From the IMG/VR virus record IMGVR_UViG_643692022_000008: a DNA stretch of 42,310 nucleotides; one strand, written 5' to 3'. The position numbers were made by a program, and so were the translations under genes. The DNA is from a virus (lineage: Duplodnaviria > Heunggongvirae > Uroviricota > Caudoviricetes). The notes beneath the pieces were generated by a model, which saw nothing but the letters and a program-made list of their open reading frames with translations, had not been told where the DNA came from and did not search any database. How positions within the stretch are numbered: the first letter of the stretch is position 1; every line of letters begins with the position of its first letter. Shown here piece by piece: positions 3,181 through 40,942 of the stretch.

Positions 3181-3736
3181 GAGACTCCCCGGCAAAAATA
3201 TCCACATCGATATGTGCTGTCGTCGCACCTGAAATATAAAAAGCGCCATCCATCCCGATATTCGCCAGAACATCTATTTTGCTCAGATGACTGCGCAGGT
3301 TTTTAGCCCGGTCAGTAAGCTGACGAATCTGGTGATACAGTGCATCGCTGACGCCCTGACTGCTGTGAACTTCAATCCGGAATGTGTAGGGTGCAGCCTG
3401 CGGTGAATCCTGCCACCACTCCACGACAGTGGTCGGCAGGTTTACCGCCCCCAGAGAACGCCTGACCGCACCCGCCGTTCCCCGGTGCTGGTGCACGTAA
3501 GCGGCGTCCTTAATCACCTGACGCTTTTGTGTCTCTGTCCAGCTGTCATCCCAAAAATCGACGGCATGTTCCCACGCAAGCCACGGTAAAAGATGTGCCG
3601 GGCAGCTGGCCGCATCTTTCACCTTACGCACCATGTTGGTATCCAGTGCGATGATGTGTTCTGTCGTCGCCTGCTCCTGCGCCCGTTCTTCATGAAATGC
3701 GCCCGGCGGCAGCAGGGAGCGAAATTTATCCGTCAT
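3173..3736 (-). CDS. Baseplate/tail protein gpI-like
   Basis: 187-aa ORF between gpJ-like and the tail fiber gene, in the P2 J-I-H order. Confidence 0.75.
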
Positions 3737-4646
3737 GGCTGCTTACCTCCCTGCGGGTGACGTTGATGGCAGTACACCACGGTGCTTTTCCGGCTTCGGC
3801 TTCCAGATCAGCCACGGGAGAGATCAGTCTGACGCGAACCACACCGGATTGCTGTAAAGCGGCATAGATGGCAGATAACGGCACCACGGTGTTAATCCGG
3901 TGAGACAGCATGGTGTAGGACTGCAAGGCTTCAATGGCATTGTTCAGAACTGTCGTGGCGTCCGGGCCGTCCGGGATCTCCAGTTCAGCCGTGATGGCAT
4001 AATTTGTGATGGTGGCGCTCTTCACCGTCACGTAGTCTGTCAATGGACGGATTTCATCGGCATTCAGTGTGCTGTTAACTTTATCCAGCAGTGGTGCAGC
4101 TGCTGTTCCGTCTCCCGTACGGGAAAGCACATACACATCAACACACCCCGGGCGGCTGTGTGTTTCGGGGCCATAAGCTTCAGCATCCAGCACATCGGTA
4201 TCCGCCGATTTCGCATGGAAGCGGTAAGCGTTGCGGGCACCCGCCGTATTTAGCTGTGCCCAGGACAACTGAATACGTTCACGAAATGCGCCGTCATCTT
4301 CCAGTTCCACTTCGACGGGGGGAACGGCATCCGGATCACCCGGTCTGATAACCTGGCGTTTAACATTGAAGGCAGCGCCAATATGATCAAGGTCTGCGCC
4401 TCTGGCGCTGGCAAGAAATACTGCCCGCACTGCATCATTGACACGCTGAAAGGCCAGCGTCAGCTGATATGCATTCACCTCTCCCTGTTTAAACGCCGGA
4501 TCGGACTCTACCAGCGCATCAAACTGCGGATCCAGCTCCTGCAGACGTGCCAGCCATCGGGAGAAAATCTCTGCGGCATCCGGCACTACAAGCGCATCAG
4601 GAACAGCGAGTTCAGACAGATTGATCACATCATAACTGTTGGGCAT
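3726..4646 (-). CDS. Baseplate assembly protein gpJ-like
   Basis: 306-aa ORF, overlaps the gpW-like and gpI-like genes; size and position match P2 gpJ. Confidence 0.8.
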   Translation of the reverse strand: MPNSYDVINLSELAVPDALVVPDAAEIFSRWLARLQELDPQFDALVESDPAFKQGEVNAYQLTLAFQRVNDAVRAVFLASARGADLDHIGAAFNVKRQVIRPGDPDAVPPVEVELEDDGAFRERIQLSWAQLNTAGARNAYRFHAKSADTDVLDAEAYGPETHSRPGCVDVYVLSRTGDGTAAAPLLDKVNSTLNADEIRPLTDYVTVKSATITNYAITAELEIPDGPDATTVLNNAIEALQSYTMLSHRINTVVPLSAIYAALQQSGVVRVRLISPVADLEAEAGKAPWCTAINVTRREVSSHDG

Positions 4647-4983
4647 TTAGCGTTATTTCTCCTGTTCTGACGGGTAAGCCGTCTTCTTTTTTGATCCCTT
4701 CGATATCCAGAACACAGCCGGATTCGCCCGCCGGGAAGGTGACCATCACCCGCGTCACCTTTAAACGCGGCTCCCAGCGAGCCAGTGCAGTCGCTGAAGC
4801 GGCGATTATCCGCAGACGCGTCAGGTCATCCCGTGGGTTATCCAGCAACGAAAACAGTTCACTGCCATAGTCACGGATCAGCACACGACTCCCGACGGGC
4901 GTGGTCAGAATGTCCCGGACAGACTGGCGCAAATGCGCCACGCCAGACAGACGTTTGCCTGTCCGGCTGTTTACACCGTTCAT
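4630..4983 (-). CDS. Baseplate protein gpW (gp25-like)
   Basis: 117-aa ORF with a GPW/gp25-like sequence immediately upstream of gpJ. Confidence 0.8.
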   Translation of the reverse strand: MNGVNSRTGKRLSGVAHLRQSVRDILTTPVGSRVLIRDYGSELFSLLDNPRDDLTRLRIIAASATALARWEPRLKVTRVMVTFPAGESGCVLDIEGIKKEDGLPVRTGEITLNAQQL

Positions 4984-5023
4984 GATGATTTTCCGTTACA
5001 AAAGCGCCGGATGGCGCGATGGA

Positions 5024-6142
5024 TTAACCGAAGTAAGCCGGACCAGTTTTATCCTGTTGCTTCGATTTTTTTGCTGATTTTTGTGGTTTGTGAATATCCA
5101 CCACCAGATTGCAGGTATAACTGAATCCGGCAGCGGTCAGTGAAAAGACCAGCGACTCAACCACCCAGGCTCTGTCTTCCCGGGTACCAAATCCTGAGGT
5201 TGCCACCCCTGCTTCTGCCGTCAGGGGAATATGCTGTGGTCGGCAGGGGCCGGTGAGCGTCATTTTCTGCTCATTCCGTCTTGCCTGTGTTTTTCGTGCT
5301 TTCGCCTGCTTCTCTGCCGTATCCTTTTCTGACTGGGTATACGGGTTGGTCATTGCCGGTCCGTCATGTTCGACCGCTGCGGTTTTTGTCCTGCCATCCA
5401 CTTCATCGTAATAGCGAACCCCGATTTTCTCTTTTGCTTTACCCCCGCTTTCCGTGACTTTACCCGTGGAACTCCCCCGCTCACCTTCACTGTATGACCA
5501 CGTTGTCACGTCTGCAGGCGTAATGGTGATACTGTCAATCTGTTTACCGGAAACTGTCGCTGTCGCCCCCTGCGGCAGAAAAAGCCAGTAACCACCGGAA
5601 GGTTTACTCACCGCGTTGTAGATGCGGGCAAGCCGGGACAGCAGGTTAGCATCAGATTCAGCCACCTGGTCGATGTGGTTAATGTGAATATCTTTCAGCG
5701 CGGCAGCGACTCTGGGGATCAGGCCATTATCGGTGGCCACGGTTTTCACCACATCCTCCAGACGAATGTTATCCCAGCTTCGTGTTTTCTGACTGGTGAC
5801 GTCACCGGGTTGCTTCCGGGCATTCATGGGCGCTGCGGTGGCATAAATTTCAATGCGCCTCGGTGGCCCACTGCTGGCAACTCCGCTGACAACAAACCAG
5901 CCTTTATCGACAAGCTGCTCATTAAATCCCAGCGCAACCTGTAGTCGCGCCCCTCTGGGCGGAAGTGTCAGCGTTTCAGAAAGCAGGGTAATCTTCAGTT
6001 CATCGGCTCTGGCGGTCGCGCCACCGTAATCTGTCAGCGTCAGTTCAGAAAGGCATTGCTCAATTATGCGGGTAATATCTTTCCCTTCTGCCTTTATGCG
6101 GAATGCTGGCGCATATTCAGGAGTCATCGTCTGAGAAACCAT
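5024..6142 (-). CDS. Phage late control protein D (P2 gpD-like tail protein)
   Basis: Start taken at internal ATG 6140-6142, which abuts the gpX stop; TPEYAPAFRIKAEGKDITRIIE...LPPRGARLQVALG resembles the P2 gpD N-terminus. Confidence 0.75.
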   Translation of the reverse strand: MVSQTMTPEYAPAFRIKAEGKDITRIIEQCLSELTLTDYGGATARADELKITLLSETLTLPPRGARLQVALGFNEQLVDKGWFVVSGVASSGPPRRIEIYATAAPMNARKQPGDVTSQKTRSWDNIRLEDVVKTVATDNGLIPRVAAALKDIHINHIDQVAESDANLLSRLARIYNAVSKPSGGYWLFLPQGATATVSGKQIDSITITPADVTTWSYSEGERGSSTGKVTESGGKAKEKIGVRYYDEVDGRTKTAAVEHDGPAMTNPYTQSEKDTAEKQAKARKTQARRNEQKMTLTGPCRPQHIPLTAEAGVATSGFGTREDRAWVVESLVFSLTAAGFSYTCNLVVDIHKPQKSAKKSKQQDKTGPAYFG

Positions 6143-29852: not shown

Positions 29853-30142
29853 ACCCCTACCCTCCCCCAAACCATCAACACCCGCTTCATCGCGGCACTC
29901 TGGCGACACTCCTTAAAAATCAGGTTAGTGCTCACCTTTCCTTCCCGTTCTTCCCTGGTAGCGAATCTGTAATACACCGTTCGCCAGACCTTACCATCAA
30001 TGACCAAGATTCCTGCCCGCGCCATTTTAGCCGCAGCCTGATTTATGCTGGTTACTGTTGCGCCTGTTGCCGCAGCTACATCCGGCGCGCAGAAAGTCCG
30101 GTGCGTTTTCAGGTAGTGAAGAATTGCCTCTTTGCCTGTCAT
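29849..30142 (-). CDS. ren: Ren-like protein
   Basis: 97-aa ORF immediately downstream of P and overlapping its stop, the position and size of lambda ren; sequence identity is from memory only. Confidence 0.55.
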   Translation of the reverse strand: MTGKEAILHYLKTHRTFCAPDVAAATGATVTSINQAAAKMARAGILVIDGKVWRTVYYRFATREEREGKVSTNLIFKECRQSAAMKRVLMVWGRVGV

Positions 30143-30840
30143 ACACTGGCTCCTTTCAGTCCGAACTTAGCTTTGATTTCTGCGATCTTCGCCAGAGCCT
30201 GAGCCCGGTTAAGTGGTCTACCGCCCATGACAGGAAGTTGTTTTACTGGTTCAGGTATAGCCTCACCACGGTTAATTCGTGCGGTCATACAGGACAGTTC
30301 ATCGGCAGCCTTGCGCCGTAATTCCGCGTCAGTCAACGCATTGGCCCGCATGTTCTGATACAGGTTGGTAACCAGCCAGTAGTGCGCGTTTGATTTCCAC
30401 GGATAAGACTCCGCATCCGGATACAGGCCTCGCTTCCGGCAATACTCGTAAACCATATCAACCAGCTCGCTGACGTTTGGCAGTCCGGCGATAACGGATG
30501 CTTCTTCCCGGCACCATGCAACAAACTGCCCGGGTGATGGCAGGAATGGTCGATTCTGCCGACGGGCTACGCGCATTCCTGCGTTAACCTGTTCCATTGT
30601 GGTGATCCCGTTTTCCCGGAAAGCCAGAACCCACTGGCGGCGGATTTCGTTCAGTTCGTTCTGATCCCGGTTAGCCAGGCTCGCAGGGAAAGTTGCCAGT
30701 AACTGGCTGAACACACCGTTGATGATCTGCGCTACCTGCTGTACCTGCGGCTTTTCGTCGTACTGTTCCAGCATATTGTTGGCGATCCGGCGCATCTGCT
30801 CACGGTCAAAGTTAACCATCTGTGCGGCGATGTTTTTCAT
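30139..30840 (-). CDS. P: Replication protein P (DnaB helicase loader)
   Basis: 233-aa protein MKNIAAQMVNFDREQMRRIANNM... essentially matching lambda P as remembered. Confidence 0.95.
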   Translation of the reverse strand: MKNIAAQMVNFDREQMRRIANNMLEQYDEKPQVQQVAQIINGVFSQLLATFPASLANRDQNELNEIRRQWVLAFRENGITTMEQVNAGMRVARRQNRPFLPSPGQFVAWCREEASVIAGLPNVSELVDMVYEYCRKRGLYPDAESYPWKSNAHYWLVTNLYQNMRANALTDAELRRKAADELSCMTARINRGEAIPEPVKQLPVMGGRPLNRAQALAKIAEIKAKFGLKGASV

Positions 30841-31856
30841 AAATCCACCCCGTAAATCCAGTCAGTGTTCGTCAGGTCGAGTTTTGGTTTGCCGGCTGTC
30901 ACGCCAGCCTGTTGCTTGTTTCGGTTGATTTCGAGCTGGGTCCACTTGTCGCGGAGTTTGGCCGGACTCAGCACGTTACCGGACCAGAAGTTGTCCTGGC
31001 ATGCCCAGCGGAACAGTACACACATATCGCGGTGGTTACGCCCGTCACGCTCACGCATCAGGCGGATATCGTTAGCCCACCCTGCAAAATTCGGTTTTCT
31101 GGCTGATGGCGCGATGGTCTTCACCATGTCAAACATCCACTCTGCGGCGGTCAGGTCTTCTGCTGTCCCCCACTTGCTGCCGCTCTGAATCGCAGCATCC
31201 GGTTTCACCACAGGAAGGTCGTTTTCTGGCTGGTCAGAGTATTCGCCAGAATTCTCGGACGAATAAGGTTTTATATTGTCTTTTGTTAGTTTGTCTTTTG
31301 TGTTTACCTGATTCGGGTAAGTGCCTTTACCTGATTTGGGTAAACTTTTCTTACCTGATTCAGGTAAATTTACCTCTTTCAGGTAAACTTTATTTTTCTT
31401 ACCTGATTCGGGTAATGTTGACCATTCACTGACCACATTATTAATGCCTATATTCCGCCCGCTCTGAATAAAAATCCCACGCTTTACCAGAACACTTTTT
31501 GCAGCAGAACACTTGTGCGGCAATATCCCGGTCAACTCGGAAAGTTGCTCGTTGCTCACCCAATCCAGTTTTTTATTAAAGCCATATGTTTTGCGCATGA
31601 CAGCCAGGAAGACCAGAAGCTGGTGCTGTGTTAATCCGGCCAGCATTACAGCTTCCAGCAACTCATTTGCAATGCGCGTATAACCATCATCGAGATCTGC
31701 CACGCGCGGCTCCTTTTGTGCCGCATCCGGCACAGGAAAATTGAATATCTCAGCAGTGTTTGCCATAATTCCTCCCGCAATGAGTGTGTTACGATTTGCA
31801 CCTGAAAGTCGGTTCTGTTCCCGCAGACCGACTTTCGCCATTTTTAAACCTGTCAT
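30837..31856 (-). CDS. O: Replication initiator O (lambda O-like C-terminus, distinct N-terminal DNA-binding domain)
   Basis: 339-aa ORF overlapping P; contains the iteron array and AT-rich tract internally; C-terminal region resembles lambda O. Confidence 0.9.
   Translation of the reverse strand: MTGLKMAKVGLREQNRLSGANRNTLIAGGIMANTAEIFNFPVPDAAQKEPRVADLDDGYTRIANELLEAVMLAGLTQHQLLVFLAVMRKTYGFNKKLDWVSNEQLSELTGILPHKCSAAKSVLVKRGIFIQSGRNIGINNVVSEWSTLPESGKKNKVYLKEVNLPESGKKSLPKSGKGTYPNQVNTKDKLTKDNIKPYSSENSGEYSDQPENDLPVVKPDAAIQSGSKWGTAEDLTAAEWMFDMVKTIAPSARKPNFAGWANDIRLMRERDGRNHRDMCVLFRWACQDNFWSGNVLSPAKLRDKWTQLEINRNKQQAGVTAGKPKLDLTNTDWIYGVDL
31304..31415. repeat. Replication origin iterons inside the O gene
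   Basis: Five ~17-bp copies of TTACCTGATTCGGGTAA-like repeats at 31304-31320, 31327-31343, 31351-31367, 31369-31386 and 31399-31415, followed in the direction of O transcription by an AT-rich tract (31261-31300). Confidence 0.85.
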
Positions 31857-32398
31857 ATTGCCCCCAACATGGTGGTAACCATCGCCATCAATGGACCAGC
31901 CAGATCCGGGTCCACACGAAACATCGACACAATACCTTCACTCATCTCCTTCAGTTTCTGGTGGCGTGGTGCGTTGAGAATGACAGCCTGTTTTGCCTCA
32001 CTGAGTTCCTTTTCCATTTCAGCCAACCGAGTCATGAAGCTATCCTGCTCAACCAGGTAACCGCGATATTCCAGCGGTAGTACCGCCAGAATTGCCGGGG
32101 TCAGTTCACGCACGTTATTTCGGTATTTTTCAGAATCGAATTTGTTATCGAGGAAGCGGAACAGCTTCTGGCGTGCACGGCTGACATCATCAGGGAAATC
32201 GATGGTGCCGCCGCCCTGCTCCCGATACTCATTCACAATGAGTGCGGCAACAACATCCTGATTATCTGCAGCCGACCAGGCGCGGACGGCATCACGGATT
32301 TTTTCGTGGCCTGGCACCTGTTTTGTTTGAGAACGATTTATCACCGCAGTCGGGCTAAATCCGCTAGTCTGTTGGTATGTAAGTGGTTGCATAGTCAT
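31853..32398 (-). CDS. YdaT-like protein (cII-position regulator/toxin-like)
   Basis: 181-aa ORF between the cro-like gene and O; EYREQGGG...ELTPAILAVLP resembles Rac YdaT as remembered. Confidence 0.5.
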   Translation of the reverse strand: MTMQPLTYQQTSGFSPTAVINRSQTKQVPGHEKIRDAVRAWSAADNQDVVAALIVNEYREQGGGTIDFPDDVSRARQKLFRFLDNKFDSEKYRNNVRELTPAILAVLPLEYRGYLVEQDSFMTRLAEMEKELSEAKQAVILNAPRHQKLKEMSEGIVSMFRVDPDLAGPLMAMVTTMLGAI

Positions 32399-32422
32399 TG
32401 CCTTATCAGTTAACGCCGCAGT

Positions 32423-32650
32423 TTAGGCGGCAGAATTACTCGCGTTAAACAATGGTGCGAGGTCGGGACGAATATCTGCTGGTTTAATCTTTCCACCAGT
32501 GGCTGAGACAATTTTCATTACATAGCGGGCATCAATTCCGCCACCGTGTAGCCAACGCCAAACTGTGGGTTGGGCTACACCGCATAGATCTGCCAGTCGT
32601 TTTTGACTACCTGTAATACTGATTGCGAGTTGAATGGTTTGATTTGTCAT
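32423..32650 (-). CDS. Cro/YdaS-like HTH repressor
   Basis: Small HTH protein (RLADLCGVAQPTVWRW) transcribed divergently from cI; likely start at ATG 32648-32650. Confidence 0.75.
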   Translation of the reverse strand: MTNQTIQLAISITGSQKRLADLCGVAQPTVWRWLHGGGIDARYVMKIVSATGGKIKPADIRPDLAPLFNASNSAA

Positions 32651-32656
32651 TATCAA

Positions 32657-32760
32657 TTCCTATTGGTATTGCAATGAATGAATAATAGCAATGAGTATTA
32701 ACCCAAGCAATAGCAAAACGTGTTTTGACCATCAATACGCAAGCGTATAAATTAAAACTT
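32657..32760. promoter_or_regulatory. OR-like operator region with divergent pR and pRM candidates
   Basis: Repeated ATTGCAAT/ATAGCAAT/CAATAGCAA motifs; minus-strand promoter -35 at 32705-32710 and -10 TATTAT at 32682-32687; plus-strand promoter TTGACC at 32725-32730 with -10 ~32747-32752, giving an apparently leaderless cI start at 32761. Confidence 0.6.
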
Positions 32761-33453
32761 ATGAAAAAAGAAACTCTTGCTGATCGCTTAAATCTAGCGA
32801 TGGAACAATCTGGAATGTCTCAAGGCGCTCTTGCAAAGGCGTCTGGCGTAGCTCAACCCACAATCTGGAGACTGACAAGCGGCAACGCGCGCGGCTCAAC
32901 AAAAATTGTTGAAATAGCTAATGCATTGGGTGTTCGAACAGAATGGCTCTCTTCAGGCATAGGCCCGATGAGAAATGACGGTCAACAATCAGGGAAGCCT
33001 GCTGTCAGCCATTCCAAATACTTCAAAATTGACGTTCTTGATATAGAAGTCAGTGCCGGGCCGGGTGTAATCAACCGTGAGTTTGTAGAAGTTCTACGCT
33101 CGGTTGAATACTCGTTTGACGATGCTCGTCACATGTTCGATGGCAGGAAGGCGGAAAATATCCGCATCATTAACGTGCGTGGTGACAGCATGTCAGGAAC
33201 GATCGAACCAGGTGATCTGCTGTTCGTTGATATCACGGTTAAATCTTTCGACGGTGATGGTATCTATGCGTTTCTGTATGACGACACCGCCCATGTAAAA
33301 CGCCTGCAAATGATGAAGGATAAGCTGCTGGTTATCTCTGATAACAAGAGCTACTCACCGTGGGACCCGATCGAGAAAGACGAGATGAACCGCGTGTTCA
33401 TCTTCGGGAAAGTCATCGGGAGCATGCCGCAGACATATAGAAAGCATGGGTAG
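32761..33453 (+). CDS. cI: CI-type repressor (HTH-XRE + S24 LexA-like peptidase domain)
   Basis: N-terminal HTH (QGALAKASGVAQPTIWRL) and C-terminal S24 domain (GDSMSGTIEPGDLLFVD...KRL); start at ATG 32761. Confidence 0.85.
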   Translation: MKKETLADRLNLAMEQSGMSQGALAKASGVAQPTIWRLTSGNARGSTKIVEIANALGVRTEWLSSGIGPMRNDGQQSGKPAVSHSKYFKIDVLDIEVSAGPGVINREFVEVLRSVEYSFDDARHMFDGRKAENIRIINVRGDSMSGTIEPGDLLFVDITVKSFDGDGIYAFLYDDTAHVKRLQMMKDKLLVISDNKSYSPWDPIEKDEMNRVFIFGKVIGSMPQTYRKHG

Positions 33454-33582
33454 AAATCAGAACAAAATTATGCACTTCGCTTTTCAGCTTACTGTAGTAA
33501 GGCAATAAATTAGGCTTGACGTTAGCTATCAGGTGCACAACAATAATTGTTGAATAATAGGTTTTTTTAACTAGGTGATAAC

Positions 33583-34722
33583 ATGGCAGCGGTTGAATTT
33601 CAATTGTCTAGGAAGATGATTGATTGGATAGCAAATTCTCAAGGAGTTTCTATCGAAACTCTTGCTGACCAAGTCATGCCCAAAAAGATTAATAAATTTC
33701 TTAACGGAGTGGTAAGTAAATCCGCAGCAGAAAAACTGGCAAAAATTGGAGGAATCCCTTTCGGTTTTTTATTTCTTGAAACGCCACCAACTCCAGCCAA
33801 ACCCAAGATCCCTGACTTAAGGCAAGCTATAAATAGCCGTGAGTTAGGAAAAGATTTTTTTGATGTTTACTATGATATAGAATATAAACTTGAGTGGTAC
33901 AAAGACTATTTAAGAGAAAATGGTAATGATGATCCACTCGATTTTATTGGTAAATTTAAATTTAATAGAAAATTAAATTATAAGGTTGTTGCTACAGACA
34001 TAGCAAACACAATACATTTTGATATACAAAAAGAGATAAAAAATGTCACTTTTGAGAGCTATTTTTCTAAAGTGGCAAAACTAATAGAAGACACTGGCGT
34101 ATTAGTTTTCAAGAATGGTGTTGTGGGTAATAATAATAAAAGAAAACTTGACACGCGAGAGTTTCGTGGTTTCTGTATATCTGATAGCGTTGCTCCGATC
34201 ATTTTTGTAAATAGCTCGGACGCGTTATCTGCGCAGGTATTTACATTATTTCATGAGGTGGCTCATCTTTGGCTTGGAGTCGATGGAGTCTCTGGGTGGG
34301 ACACAGAAAAAAACATAGAATCTTTTTGTAATAAAGTTGCTGCTGAAATCTTAATGCCTGATAATCTCTTCAAATCTTTCTGGCTTAATGCATCCAGCGA
34401 TAATAATTATTATCGAGTAAAAGAGGTTTCTAAGTTATTTAAGGTTAGTGATTTCGCTTGTGCAATCAAAGCGTTACAATTAGATTTGATAGAAAGAAAC
34501 ACTTTGGAGATAATTAAAGATCAAGCTTACAATAAGCCCAAAAAAGAATCCAATGGTGGTTCTTTCTTTAACACATTACCTGTTCGTAACAGTCCAAAAC
34601 TTACGAATATAATAATTTCCAAAGCAATGTCTCAACAATTACCATTAAGGGAAGCAGGCGTACTGCTAAATGTAAAAGCAGATACAGTTGTTGAATTTTA
34701 TAAAAAACGAGAATCTCTATGA
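33583..34722 (+). CDS. HTH + ImmA/IrrE-family (DUF955/COG2856-like) HEXXH metallopeptidase
   Basis: 379-aa AT-rich ORF with AGGTGA RBS; N-terminal XRE-like HTH; HEVAH motif at 34251-34265; stop overlaps the next gene's start (ATGA at 34719-34722). Confidence 0.7.
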   Translation: MAAVEFQLSRKMIDWIANSQGVSIETLADQVMPKKINKFLNGVVSKSAAEKLAKIGGIPFGFLFLETPPTPAKPKIPDLRQAINSRELGKDFFDVYYDIEYKLEWYKDYLRENGNDDPLDFIGKFKFNRKLNYKVVATDIANTIHFDIQKEIKNVTFESYFSKVAKLIEDTGVLVFKNGVVGNNNKRKLDTREFRGFCISDSVAPIIFVNSSDALSAQVFTLFHEVAHLWLGVDGVSGWDTEKNIESFCNKVAAEILMPDNLFKSFWLNASSDNNYYRVKEVSKLFKVSDFACAIKALQLDLIERNTLEIIKDQAYNKPKKESNGGSFFNTLPVRNSPKLTNIIISKAMSQQLPLREAGVLLNVKADTVVEFYKKRESL

Positions 34723-35231
34723 TTCATAATGGAAAATTCTTAATTGATAGTAATGTCTTCATAGAGGCAAAAAACTTTGCATATAACTTCAATTATTGCA
34801 AAATATTTTGGGATTTTCTTCTCGCTTTACACATTAAAGGTCTGATTTATAGCATTAATGCTGTAAAAAAAGAACTATGTGCAAAAGATGATCCATTGTG
34901 TAAATGGATTAAAGAAGAGTTACCATCATCATTCTTCGAAGATGAGCATAGTTCAATAGAAAATTATGCAAAGTTAATAAATTGGTCAACTAAATTAGAT
35001 GTTACCGAAAAGGCAAAGTTTGATTTTGCAAGCCATGAAAAAGCAGATGCTTTTTTAATAGCCCATGCGATGACACATGGATATACTATTATTACCCATG
35101 AGAAACCATCCGGTGGCAAACCTAAAAAAAGAATAATGATCCCGGATGCTGCTGCTTCTCACGGCGTTAAGACATTAACACTATATGAATTTCTTCCAAG
35201 ATACGCTAGTCATAATTTTTCTTTGAAATAA
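34719..35231 (+). CDS. DUF4411 PIN-like putative nuclease
   Basis: 170-aa AT-rich ORF translationally coupled to the upstream peptidase; N-terminal FLIDSNVFIEA strand with conserved Asp typical of PIN-like folds. Confidence 0.65.
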   Translation: MIHNGKFLIDSNVFIEAKNFAYNFNYCKIFWDFLLALHIKGLIYSINAVKKELCAKDDPLCKWIKEELPSSFFEDEHSSIENYAKLINWSTKLDVTEKAKFDFASHEKADAFLIAHAMTHGYTIITHEKPSGGKPKKRIMIPDAAASHGVKTLTLYEFLPRYASHNFSLK

Positions 35232-35236
35232 AACGT

Positions 35237-35263
35237 CCCGGCCACCGTGCCGGGTTTTCTTTT
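35237..35263 (+). terminator. Rho-independent terminator after the two-gene module (tIMM-like)
   Basis: Hairpin cccggc/caccgt/gccggg (35237-35254) followed by ttttctttt. Confidence 0.7.
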
Positions 35264-35379
35264 GCCTCCCCTCATCACACACACCATTCAAAAAACCACC
35301 ACAACCCCGCTTCAGTTATCGCTATGCGATGCAAGTCACAAAATTAATTCTTTTTGCTATCAAATATTTAATATCAAAA

Positions 35380-35432
35380 CACATCTAGCAATAGCAATAA
35401 GTATTGATATCATCAATAGCAATAGCTATTAT
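35380..35432 (+). promoter_or_regulatory. OL-like operators with candidate pL promoter
   Basis: CAATAGCAA(T) motifs at 35386-35397 and 35414-35426 match the OR motif; TTGATA (35404-35409), 17-bp spacer, TATTAT (35427-35432) on the + strand facing gam-bet-exo. Confidence 0.55.
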
Positions 35433-35625
35433 CACCATGTCGCAACAACACAACGATACGGCAATCACCTGATTCACCGTTGCGATGACCGCTTAGATCC
35501 GCAGCTTGAATTTCAGCAGGCTCCGGGGAGTGCGAGGGGTGAAGCGGACGCGTGAACGTCGGTGTGACCAGCTGAAATCAACTCAACACTTCATACCTCA
35601 GTCGCTTCAACGAGGCGGCTTAGTT

Positions 35626-35916
35626 ATGACAACCGGCGGCCATCCACCGCCTGAATACGCGCAGAAGTCTTTATATGTTCAGCAGCCCAGCTTACGGGCA
35701 GGAGTTTTTATGGTTCATCAACATTACGGAACGCAGACCGTTAATCGCGGTGCGGTCATGCCAGGAATGCTGGTCAAACACAAAGATGGTACCTGGACTG
35801 CATCAGCTAATTTACGCGGACGGCTTTATCTGCATCGCGGCATCGAGCGCACTTATACCCGTGATTTGCTCGTGGAAGTTTTTCTCGACGGACGCGGTAA
35901 CGGCCTCAATCACTAA
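35626..35916 (+). CDS. Hypothetical early-left protein
   Basis: ORF between the OL-like region and gam; start uncertain (track ORF starts at 35506, internal ATG at 35626 has a GAGG RBS). Confidence 0.35.
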
Positions 35917-39467: not shown

Positions 39468-39815
39468 GTGGAAGAAGAAATCTTCACTCGTGAAGAGGCT
39501 GCGTCGTATCTGAAGGTAGACAAAGGCACTATCACGCAGTGGATACGAAGTGGACGACTTCAAGCCGCAAAGATAAATCCAGATAAACCTAAAAGCCCAT
39601 ATCGCATTTGCAAGTCAGACTGCATTGCGGCGCTTAAGTCTGTGAGACACAATAGCGCGGTGAATGCGGTTGATGTGCAGGAGGTTAAAGCATGTCAATC
39701 AAACTGCGCGGTGGCACATGGCACTGCGATTTCGTCGCGCCAGATGGATCAAGAGTTAGACGCTCTCTTGAAACATCGGACAAAAGGCAAGCGCAAGAAC
39801 TTCACGATCGTCTGA
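39468..39815 (+). CDS. xis: Excisionase-like HTH protein (Xis)
   Basis: Probable GTG start at 39468 with GGAG RBS; HTH (TREEAASYLKVDKGTITQWIRSGRL); overlaps the integrase start, as xis and int overlap in lambda. The exact stop is uncertain. Confidence 0.6.
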   Translation: MEEEIFTREEAASYLKVDKGTITQWIRSGRLQAAKINPDKPKSPYRICKSDCIAALKSVRHNSAVNAVDVQEVKACQSNCAVAHGTAISSRQMDQELDALLKHRTKGKRKNFTIV

Positions 39816-40852
39816 AAGCAGAAGCGTGGAGAGTAAAAAATCTCGGGGAATCACCGAAAAAGCTATTCAAGGAAGCCTGCATACGGTGGCTGCGTGAGAA
39901 ATCGGATAAGAAGTCCATTGATGATGACAAGAGCATTATATCGTTCTGGATGTTGCACTTCAGAGAAACCATTCTCTCTGACATAACAACAGAAAAAATA
40001 ATGGAGGCGGTAGACGGGATGGAAAACCGCCGCCATCGCCTGAACTGGGAGATGAGCCGGGACAGGTGTTTGCGGCTTGGCAAGCCAGTGCCGGAGTATA
40101 AACCAAAGCTGGCAAGCAAAGGAACGAAGACGCGGCATCTGGCAATACTTCGCGCTATTCTCAATATGGCTGTTGAATGGGGATGGCTTGACAGGGCGCC
40201 CAAAATATCAACACCACGCGTTAAGAATGGACGAATCAGATGGCTTACAGAGGAGGAATCGAAGCGCCTGTTTGCAGAAATTGCTCCTCATTTCTTCCCT
40301 GTGGTCATGTTTGCAATCACGACAGGCCTTCGTCGTTCCAACGTTACAGACCTTGAGTGGTCACAGGTCGATCTGGATAAGAAAATGGCATGGATGCACC
40401 CTGATGAAACAAAAGCTGGCAATGCGATCGGAGTTCCTCTTAACGAAACCGCATGCCAGATATTAAGAAAACAGCAGGGGCTCCATAAGAGATGGGTATT
40501 TGTCCACACCAAACCTGCCTACCGAAGCGACGGAACAAAAACAGCAGCGGTAAGGAAGATGAGAACCGACAGCAACAAGGCATGGAAGGGAGCGTTAAAG
40601 CGGGCAGGCATTAGCAACTTCCGCTTCCATGACCTGAGGCATACCTGGGCAAGCTGGCTGGTTCAGTCCGGTGTCTCTCTTCTTGCACTTAAAGAGATGG
40701 GAGGATGGGAAACTCTCGAAATGGTTCAAAGATACGCCCACCTTTCAGCTGGGCATCTCACCGAGCACGCGAGCAAAATCGATGCGATTATAAGTCGCAA
40801 TGGCACAAATACGGCACAGGAGGAGAACGTAGTTTACTTAAATGCGAGGTAA
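39692..40852 (+). CDS. int: Tyrosine site-specific integrase
   Basis: 386-aa ORF ending 14 bp before the tRNA 3' end; C-terminal catalytic region [10 protein letters not shown]...RYAHL. Confidence 0.92.
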   Translation: MSIKLRGGTWHCDFVAPDGSRVRRSLETSDKRQAQELHDRLKAEAWRVKNLGESPKKLFKEACIRWLREKSDKKSIDDDKSIISFWMLHFRETILSDITTEKIMEAVDGMENRRHRLNWEMSRDRCLRLGKPVPEYKPKLASKGTKTRHLAILRAILNMAVEWGWLDRAPKISTPRVKNGRIRWLTEEESKRLFAEIAPHFFPVVMFAITTGLRRSNVTDLEWSQVDLDKKMAWMHPDETKAGNAIGVPLNETACQILRKQQGLHKRWVFVHTKPAYRSDGTKTAAVRKMRTDSNKAWKGALKRAGISNFRFHDLRHTWASWLVQSGVSLLALKEMGGWETLEMVQRYAHLSAGHLTEHASKIDAIISRNGTNTAQEENVVYLNAR

Positions 40853-40866
40853 CTTATTGATTTAGA

Positions 40867-40942
40867 TGGTGCCGATAATAGGAGTCGAACCTACGACCTT
40901 CGCATTACGAATGCGCTGCTCTACCAACTGAGCTATATCGGC
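40867..40942 (-). tRNA. thrW: tRNA-Thr (anticodon CGU), thrW-like; 3' 46 nt form the att core
   Basis: Reverse complement reads GCCGATATAGCTCAGTTGGTAGAGCAGCGCATTCGTAATGCGAAGGTCGTAGGTTCGACTCCTATTATCGGCACCA: cloverleaf with CGT anticodon and encoded CCA. Confidence 0.95.

Follow-up and report, generated by a model that had tools for sequence, protein, structure and literature searches.

What kind of switch maintains lysogeny in the prophage of IMG/VR virus record IMGVR_UViG_643692022_000008, and how does a two-gene cargo come to stand inside it? The record, 42,310 nucleotides in length and hereafter the window, is an Escherichia coli lambdoid prophage, with bases 32400–35700 that are 100% identical to strain JNEC-KY177. 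An earlier reading of the letters, which we call the original prediction, had proposed lambda-like logic for the region 32657–35432, with one operator motif on both sides of the repressor gene cI and of the cargo that follows it. We give a probability of roughly 0.88 to the reading of this region as the immunity region of a lambdoid E. coli prophage on the lambda plan. The operators, their geometry and their co-variation with the DNA-binding domain of the repressor uphold the lambda-like logic; it does not extend to an N gene after the leftward promoter, which is missing.

An 18-bp dyad on both sides of cI and its cargo

The cro analogue (minus strand) and cI (plus strand) are divergent, and the 110-bp gap between them holds four 18-bp dyads laid over the rightward promoter (pR) and the promoter of cI (pRM). 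The dyad has the form CAATAGC-N4-GCTATTG, with four copies in 32654–32750, which we call the rightward operator region (OR), and three in 35345–35431, the leftward operator region (OL), around the early leftward promoter (pL). The motif CAATAGCAA(T) of the original prediction is real, but it amounts to the left half and spacer of this dyad rather than to a whole operator, and ATTGCAAT (32668–32675), which had been counted among its relatives, is not conserved in related phages and is not an element of its own. We scored the window with a symmetrised 18-bp matrix; all seven sites entered the matrix, so that the scores below are self-fitted, and the best position outside OR and OL reaches 12.4.

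32423–32650, minus strand: cro analogue encoding a YdaS-family helix-turn-helix (HTH) protein (Pfam YdaS_toxin, E 9.6e-15; weak P22_Cro match)
32654–32671: ORa, CAATTCCTATTGGTATTG, score 21.2, over the Shine–Dalgarno (SD) sequence of cro and downstream of the predicted pR start
32683–32700: ORb, TAATAGCAATGAGTATTA, score 20.4, covering the pR −10 and spacer, in an OR1-like position
32708–32725: ORc, CAATAGCAAAACGTGTTT, score 14.7, overlapping the pR −35, in an OR2-like position
32733–32750: ORd, CAATACGCAAGCGTATAA, score 14.7, within the pRM spacer and −10, in an OR3-like position
32761–33453, plus strand: cI, encoding a repressor with HTH_3 (Pfam E 1.8e-6) and S24 autopeptidase (Peptidase_S24, E 1.3e-18) domains
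35345–35362: OL3, TAATTCTTTTTGCTATCA, score 13.9, 44 bp upstream of OL2
35389–35406: OL2, CAATAGCAATAAGTATTG, score 21.7, overlapping the pL −35
35414–35431: OL1, CAATAGCAATAGCTATTA, score 22.3 (the window maximum), covering the pL spacer and −10

Centre-to-centre spacings are 29, 25 and 25 bp in OR and 44 and 25 bp in OL, and the half-sites of OL1 are symmetric at 13 of 14 positions.

As had been claimed, the same motif occurs on both sides of cI and its cargo: exact copies of CAATAGCAA are found three times in the window (32708, 35389 and 35414), all in OR or OL, against 0.46 expected, and none of 100 shuffles reaches three. Looser forms are not significant window-wide, so that the clustering is the signal: 20 copies with one mismatch compare with 12.3 expected (8 of the 20 lie inside the OR and OL regions), and four copies of ATAGCAAT with 1.5 expected, a count that 9 of 100 shuffles reach. 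The two regions also share a 49-nt direct repeat (32684–32732 and 35390–35438, 73% identity) and a 22-nt inverted match (32651–32672 and 35388–35409, 86%). With OR as the query for shared 16-mers, the OL bin ranked first by six-fold, and 2 of 150 random queries equalled its count; because this null is noisy, we relied on the matrix test and on comparative evidence instead.

When sites were left out of the matrix one at a time, five of six outscored every one of the 84,122 positions outside OR and OL, whereas seven outside positions equalled or exceeded ORc. This test used an earlier register, shifted by 3 bp. That register, TAGCAATA-NN-TATTGATA, was dropped for CAATAGC-N4-GCTATTG because the cross-genus alignment contains perfect palindromes, for example CAATAGCATATGCTATTG in Pantoea and TAATAGCAATTGCTATTA in the OL of Enterobacter.

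Promoters and the start of cI

The geometry of sites and promoters is that of the OR1/OR2/OR3 and OL1/OL2 layout of lambda. Three predicted promoters are involved:

32682–32710, minus strand: pR, with −35 TTGCTT (32710–32705), a 17-nt spacer and −10 TATTAT (32687–32682), read from the sequence
32725–32753, plus strand: pRM candidate, TTGACC-17-TAAATT, 9/12 in the promoter scan, then 7 nt, then the cI ATG
35404–35432, plus strand: pL, TTGATA-17-TATTAT, 10/12 in the scan, facing kil-gam-bet-exo

The minus-strand TATTAT of pR and the whole of pL are present where the original prediction had placed them. What makes these promoters credible is that their positions are conserved in other genera: TTGCyT-17-TATTAT at pR in Kluyvera, Citrobacter, Enterobacter and others, and TTGmTA-17-TATTAT at pL across genera. 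At pRM, the hexamers and their distance to the ATG are kept, and the 7-nt stretch between them varies.

The ATG of cI at 32761 has no SD sequence upstream and begins 7 nt after this conserved −10, which agrees with the start that had been proposed. Across genera, single-base insertions and deletions rule out an upstream coding extension of cI. A leaderless cI mRNA from pRM is a reasonable reading, one that would fit both the sequence and its conservation.

Conservation of the operators across genera

We scanned 39 loci of other genera, with CI N-terminal domains that are 52–82% identical to that of the window. In 28 of them, strong motif matches lie directly upstream of cI and again 158–2509 bp past its stop (a strong downstream site being one with a matrix score of at least 14). 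The other 11 are mostly the most diverged loci; they have no downstream site of at least 14, and several have weaker matches after cI. An alignment of the cI-upstream region with 18 other genomes (Kluyvera, Citrobacter, Enterobacter, Yokenella, Siccibacter, Buttiauxella, Pantoea and others) has conserved half-sites and free central bases, and dyads with a free centre are kept across more than 15 genera.

Site by site, both half-sites of ORa are conserved and its central 4 nt vary, and ORb is the best-conserved block of the alignment. ORc, centred at about −44 from the cI ATG, is highly conserved across genera and matches the consensus in its left half only. ORd is conserved, and Mixta and Pantoea retain a dyad there with altered sequence (ATAGC-N4-GCTAT). 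On the leftward side, OL2 and the AATTC-N5-GCTATCA of OL3 are conserved across genera. Other genera have a fourth, perfect OL dyad (TAATAGCAATTGCTATTA) between OL3 and OL2; in the window, positions 35368–35385 hold a degenerate remnant of it, TTAATATCAAAACACATC. A 1652-bp contig in a Parachlamydiaceae metagenome-assembled genome carries an Enterobacter-type cI, a lipoprotein cargo gene and OL dyads, and is very likely an enterobacterial contaminant of the bin.

Operators and DNA-binding domains change together

A second immunity type, found in E. coli Esc11, O157:H7 TR01 and many other E. coli prophages, provides a natural exchange of specificity. Residues 83–230 of its CI are 100% identical to those of the window, whereas residues 1–80, recognition helix included, have diverged. 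The terminator, the 90-bp spacer and the pL leader are nearly the same in its DNA as in the window; the cro–OR region and the block corresponding to 35346–35439 are unrelated. OR and OL of the second type have a dyad of their own in common (19 nt, 95% complementarity), and its cI start is arranged alike (TTGATG-17-TACATT-6-ATG). The OL block is thus exchanged along with the DNA-binding domain of CI, as expected of cognate operators, and 35345–35432 is best read as the cognate OL and pL.

Both regulators follow the same pattern. In the immunity type of the window, the recognition helix is GVAQPTIWR in CI and GVAQPTVWR in Cro; in the second type, both proteins carry a different helix, which fits the reading of the same sites by CI and Cro. 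Residues are identical after 83 and diverged before, which places a recombination junction inside cI at about 33000–33010 (codons 80–83). The identity of the C-terminal domain means that this part of cI can serve as a homology arm for swapping the specificity module and cargo.

The shared helix, GVAQPT[IV]WR, also means that the sequence alone does not name the binder. The motif might mainly bind the YdaS-like Cro or another regulator while CI recognizes something else, and a conserved palindrome of another kind, CAAAACGTGTTTTG, which the right half of ORc forms, would suit such a regulator. We consider this improbable. The block that co-varies takes in the N-terminal domain of cI, and the sites cover pR and pL, the promoters that a lysogenic repressor must silence. 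Moreover, in lambda, 434 and CP-933P the two proteins share their operators (PMC8630535), so that a Cro site hardly competes with a CI site as an explanation.

A predicted circuit

We hypothesize that CI is a repressor of the 434/lambda type, with an HTH domain and a LexA-like S24 self-cleavage domain, and that its dimer binds the 18-bp dyad. The nearest solved structure to its DNA-binding domain is that of the 434 repressor, and the residues for self-cleavage are present (Ala99-Gly100, Ser143 within GDSMSG and Lys180 within HVKRL). At ORb and ORc, which cover the pR −10 and spacer and its −35, CI would switch off cro, the cII-like gene, O and P; at OL1 and OL2, which cover the corresponding parts of pL, it would switch off kil-gam-bet-exo. 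From its centre near −44, ORc is placed for activation of pRM, and ORd, inside pRM, is placed for its repression at high CI, an order of filling that the layout suggests. ORa would be a fourth OR site, over the ribosome-binding site of cro. Cro, with the same recognition helix, probably competes for the sites of CI. In the lysogen, the pRM mRNA would start at or next to the cI AUG, run through cI and the cargo and end at a terminator before OL.

A cargo slot between cI and OL

The interval after cI, which is the position of rexAB in lambda, varies in content among phages of the same immunity that share 95–98% identical DNA. Homology ends at the cI stop (33449–33453) and resumes at 35223–35237, at the foot of the terminator:

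35237–35254, plus strand: intrinsic terminator of the cI–cargo unit, with six G-C pairs and a T run, terminator-like on both strands

The original prediction was right about this hairpin and wrong about its owner. It had been given to the cargo operon, and it belongs to the phage backbone because homology resumes there in relatives with other cargo or none.

Carriers of other cargo with the same immunity include PhiR70_1, PhiR68_2, 4A7, Perceval and many chromosomal prophages. Genes recorded in the slot include an MqsA-like three-gene set, HipA_2 with DUF3037, SIR2, a Panacea-domain pair, DUF6414, a ParA-like ATPase, lipoproteins and an ASCH pair, for which PADLOC has the candidate model PDC-M11; in some relatives there is no cargo. 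The same ASCH cargo is found with both immunity types; cargo and immunity therefore reassort independently. We suppose that the slot exchanges its cargo by recombination in the conserved sequence on either side. The cI–N interval is known as a hotspot of mosaicism, occupied by rexAB in lambda and bstA in BTP1 (PMC8585504, citing Degnan et al. 2007).

In PhiR70_1, the slot cargo (3674–5196) encodes an unknown protein, an MqsA-like antitoxin and a third protein, which RefSeq names a SecB chaperone in an E. coli genome with apparently the same cargo. This three-gene set resembles toxin–antitoxin–chaperone defence systems such as CmdTAC and has no PADLOC match.

The peptidase–PIN cassette

In the window, the slot is filled by two genes with a G+C content of 26–38%, compared with about 50% in the flanks, and by a promoter candidate of their own:

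33516–33544, plus strand: cassette promoter candidate, TTGACG-17-AACAAT, a scan match, followed by the SD sequence AGGTGAT
33583–34722, plus strand: cargo gene 1, an ImmA/IrrE (M78) metallopeptidase (Pfam Peptidase_M78, E 1.2e-13; RefSeq product name)
34719–35231, plus strand: cargo gene 2, a DUF4411 PIN-like protein (Pfam DUF4411, E 1.6e-37), with an ATG that overlaps the stop of gene 1 (ATGA)

The peptidase has the HExxH motif as HEVAH (residues 224–228), and no Pfam HTH domain was detected in it at E 0.01 or better. The spacing of TTGACG, CAACAAT and GGTGAT is kept in four cassettes from different contexts with 53–78% protein identity. A 20-nt stretch of cI, CAACAAAAATTGTTG (32894–32913), is 90% identical to a palindrome at the cassette promoter, CAACAATAATTGTTG (33535–33554). 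We rejected a functional link and regard the likeness as coincidence because phages with other cargo have the cI copy too, and the cI genes of other genera lack it.

The cargo does lie between OR and OL, as the original prediction had it, but co-expression with the repressor is the more probable relation, rather than control by it. The matrix scan of the window found no operator-like site within the cargo, so that CI probably does not repress it. With a conserved promoter of its own, the cargo is probably expressed both from that promoter and by read-through from pRM, and so alongside cI in the lysogen. A position within the operon of the repressor would link cassette expression to lysogeny.

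The cassette is present in 33 of 5426 complete E. coli genomes, once in each, and an equal number carry the whole immunity-plus-cargo stretch; at useful identity, it was found in none of the deposited phage genomes. E. coli IAI1 and JNEC-KY177 are lysogens with this prophage and cassette. The peptidase–PIN pairing is kept in all eight contexts that were sampled, the window included. Five of these place the cassette directly downstream of a prophage repressor: three are in E. coli, Klebsiella and Enterobacter, and two are Morganellaceae prophages, in one of which N comes immediately next. The remaining three contexts are the tail end of a P2-like prophage, a P4-like primase island and an integrase islet. 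The repressor-adjacent homologues in Klebsiella, Enterobacter and Morganellaceae lambdoid prophages have 53–72% protein identity, and the adjoining repressors belong to several different prophage lineages. Such a distribution is typical of mobile defence or addiction modules.

Among defence models in PADLOC, the peptidase matches capP and RmrA weakly (E 1e-14 to 1e-4), with RmrA aligning up to residues 20–314, and the DUF4411 protein has no match; the RmrA–RmrT pairing of Rosmer is therefore not what we see here. Both cargo proteins are weakly similar to Protein Data Bank entries 9vzy and 9vzz, in which an HTH cro/C1 protein is complexed with a DUF4411 protein (E of about 1e-6 for the 9vzy chains). 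Chain 9vzy_A, named as the HTH cro/C1 protein, aligns over residues 167–265 of the peptidase only. A literature search on 9vzy and 9vzz found no describing paper, and one on GevA/GevT found nothing relevant.

The cassette is most likely a toxin–antitoxin-type module with an anti-phage or addiction role. A more specific proposal, for which we would give slightly less than even odds, is that it is an uncharacterised anti-phage system of the abortive-infection type, expressed in the lysogen and repeatedly captured downstream of prophage repressors.

The peptidase could instead be an ImmA-like anti-repressor protease that cleaves CI or Cro, which would make the cassette part of the induction circuit. 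Proteases of the ImmA family cleave XRE-type repressors encoded directly upstream, as in ICEBs1 ImmR/ImmA (PMC5499597), and of the repressors that directly precede homologous cassettes in Klebsiella, Enterobacter and Morganellaceae, two are short (143 and 155 amino acids) with no S24 match on record. In ImmR/ImmA-type pairs, the protease is inherited with a repressor that lacks a cleavage domain, whereas CI has its own S24 cleavage module, and in phages of the same immunity (95–98% DNA identity) the slot is filled by unrelated cargo instead of the cassette. In the P2-like, P4-like and integrase contexts the cassette stands apart from any repressor, and the peptidase is always accompanied by the PIN gene and the cassette promoter. 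We therefore think an anti-repressor role unlikely, and retain the module with an anti-phage or addiction role as the preferred reading of the cassette.

Points that weigh against a lambda-type immunity region

Several observations count against the lambda-type interpretation of the region. Some concern the sites: ORc, ORd and OL3 are weak matches to the motif, and, because CAATAG is repeated in tandem, certain sites could equally be placed 6 bp away. ORc has a right half that is conserved without being operator-like, so that a constraint other than CI symmetry may act there, and lambda has no site like ORa downstream of the pR start. Others concern transcription. Promoter-like matches are not enriched in the region (12 compared with 10.3 expected from shuffles), and pR is missing from the scan list because its −35, TTGCTT, matches at just three of six positions. 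Transcription is assumed to continue from cI into the cargo only on the ground that the terminator scan found nothing in between. Finally, early leftward transcription is not fully lambda-like because no N gene follows pL.

A chance or compositional likeness of two promoter regions, with no protein-binding site in either, is the least probable account: both regions are AT-rich and neither the one-mismatch nor the ATAGCAAT count stands out window-wide, but the three exact CAATAGCAA copies all fall in OR or OL, leave-one-out recovery was clean for five of six sites, and dyads with free centres that persist across genera in a block co-varying with the repressor domain already contradict it.

Neighbouring genes

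The genes leftward of cro and those of the pL operon complete the lambdoid arrangement:

30139–30840, minus strand: P replication gene
30837–31856, minus strand: O replication gene
31853–32398, minus strand: YdaT-family gene in the cII position (Pfam YdaT_toxin, E 4.9e-30)

YdaT is the functional equivalent of CII in CP-933P (PMC8630535, PMC9986795). The cro gene starts at an ATG (32650–32648) with the SD sequence AGGA (32661–32658). We considered TTGATTTGTCATTATCAA (32639–32656), which lies over the cro start codon, as a YdaT-type site, one mismatch from the YdaT site of CP-933P (TTGATT-N6-AATCAA); it was rejected because hits in the window are at the chance level and because the position is wrong for a pRE-like promoter.

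On the plus strand, the pL operon comprises kil (RefSeq annotation), gam (Pfam, E 3.4e-65), bet (RecT) and exo (YqaJ). Between pL and the kil frame there is no open reading frame of at least 40 amino acids that could encode the N antiterminator, and RefSeq annotates none there. N is the first gene of the pL operon in lambda itself and not in all lambdoid phages. Prophages of the two immunity types have almost the same leader from pL to kil (35440–35626, about 190 nt). Structured RNA in the leader (35439–35640) was considered and found no support: the fold was not significant (z-score −1.6) and there was no Rfam match.

Further along, a tRNA-Thr (CGT) at 40867–40942 (minus strand) adjoins a 386-amino-acid open reading frame at 39692–40852 (plus strand), presumed to be the integrase, and this region (39692–40942) is probably the attachment end of the prophage. 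At the far end, there is a full-length match to Rfam IS009 (RF02111; 951–1149, minus strand, 210.8 bits).

Comparison with known systems

The region presents a new, uncharacterised immunity specificity within a well-known architecture, that of lambda cI-rexAB, BTP1 bstA and CP-933P paaR2-paaA2-parE2. It offers a testable operator model (one 18-bp dyad, seven sites and three promoters) for an immunity type of which we found no experimental description. Among the 5426 complete E. coli genomes searched, several hundred or more carry this type, and isolated phages such as 4A7, Perceval and the PhiR series have it too; the sequence search with the region gave a match in 2229 genomes. It also offers a clean natural swap of specificity, in which cro, OR and OL are replaced along with the N-terminal domain of cI and its C-terminal domain stays identical, and it makes the interval from the cI stop to the terminator a cassette slot for many toxin–antitoxin-like and candidate defence genes. 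Current understanding is unchanged; the picture from lambda, CP-933P and BTP1 is extended to another module. The most useful lead, and a modestly novel one, is the peptidase–PIN cassette as a candidate defence system tied to prophage repressors.

As in lambda (facts restated in PMC8630535 and PMC8585504), several dyad operators separate the divergent genes cI and cro, and the same operators recur over the early leftward promoter. The accessory genes are on the cI strand, between cI and a terminator that precedes OL. Both systems have an operator centred near −42 to −44 of pRM, an SD-less cI start after the −10 and a CI with an S24 domain. Unlike lambda, the operator here is CAATAGC-N4-GCTATTG, there are four OR sites, one of them downstream of the pR start, and the Cro and CII are of the YdaS and YdaT types. 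No N follows pL, and the cargo is a peptidase and a PIN protein with their own promoter rather than rexAB.

The system in CP-933P of O157:H7 (Jurenas et al. 2021, PMC8630535) similarly has a toxin–antitoxin pair in a lambdoid repressor operon (paaR2-paaA2-parE2) opposite ydaS-ydaT, and four 18-bp palindromes were found experimentally in its OR. The differences lie in the repressor (PaaR2 is small, whereas CI here has an S24 domain), in the pair (ParE-type rather than peptidase and PIN) and in the operator consensus; CP-933P has been tested experimentally, whereas the system here is known from sequence. In BTP1 of Salmonella (Owen et al. 2021, PMC8585504), the defence gene bstA is likewise just downstream of the repressor and presumably under the same promoter, but BstA is a single protein with a DNA-based self-immunity element.

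For the cassette itself, proteins with an M78 peptidase domain also occur in Rosmer (RmrA) and CBASS (CapP) systems; the E-values here are weak, and there is neither an RmrT partner nor any CBASS gene. The pair also matches the plan of the predicted three-component toxin–antitoxin systems of HTH-DUF955 and DUF4411.1 (Matelska et al. 2017, PMC5499597), in which DUF4411 is the predicted toxin; the literature that we searched held no functional test of this family. Those systems have an HTH domain, which the Pfam search at E 0.01 or better did not detect in the peptidase of the window; the order is the same, with an M78 gene followed by an overlapping DUF4411 gene.

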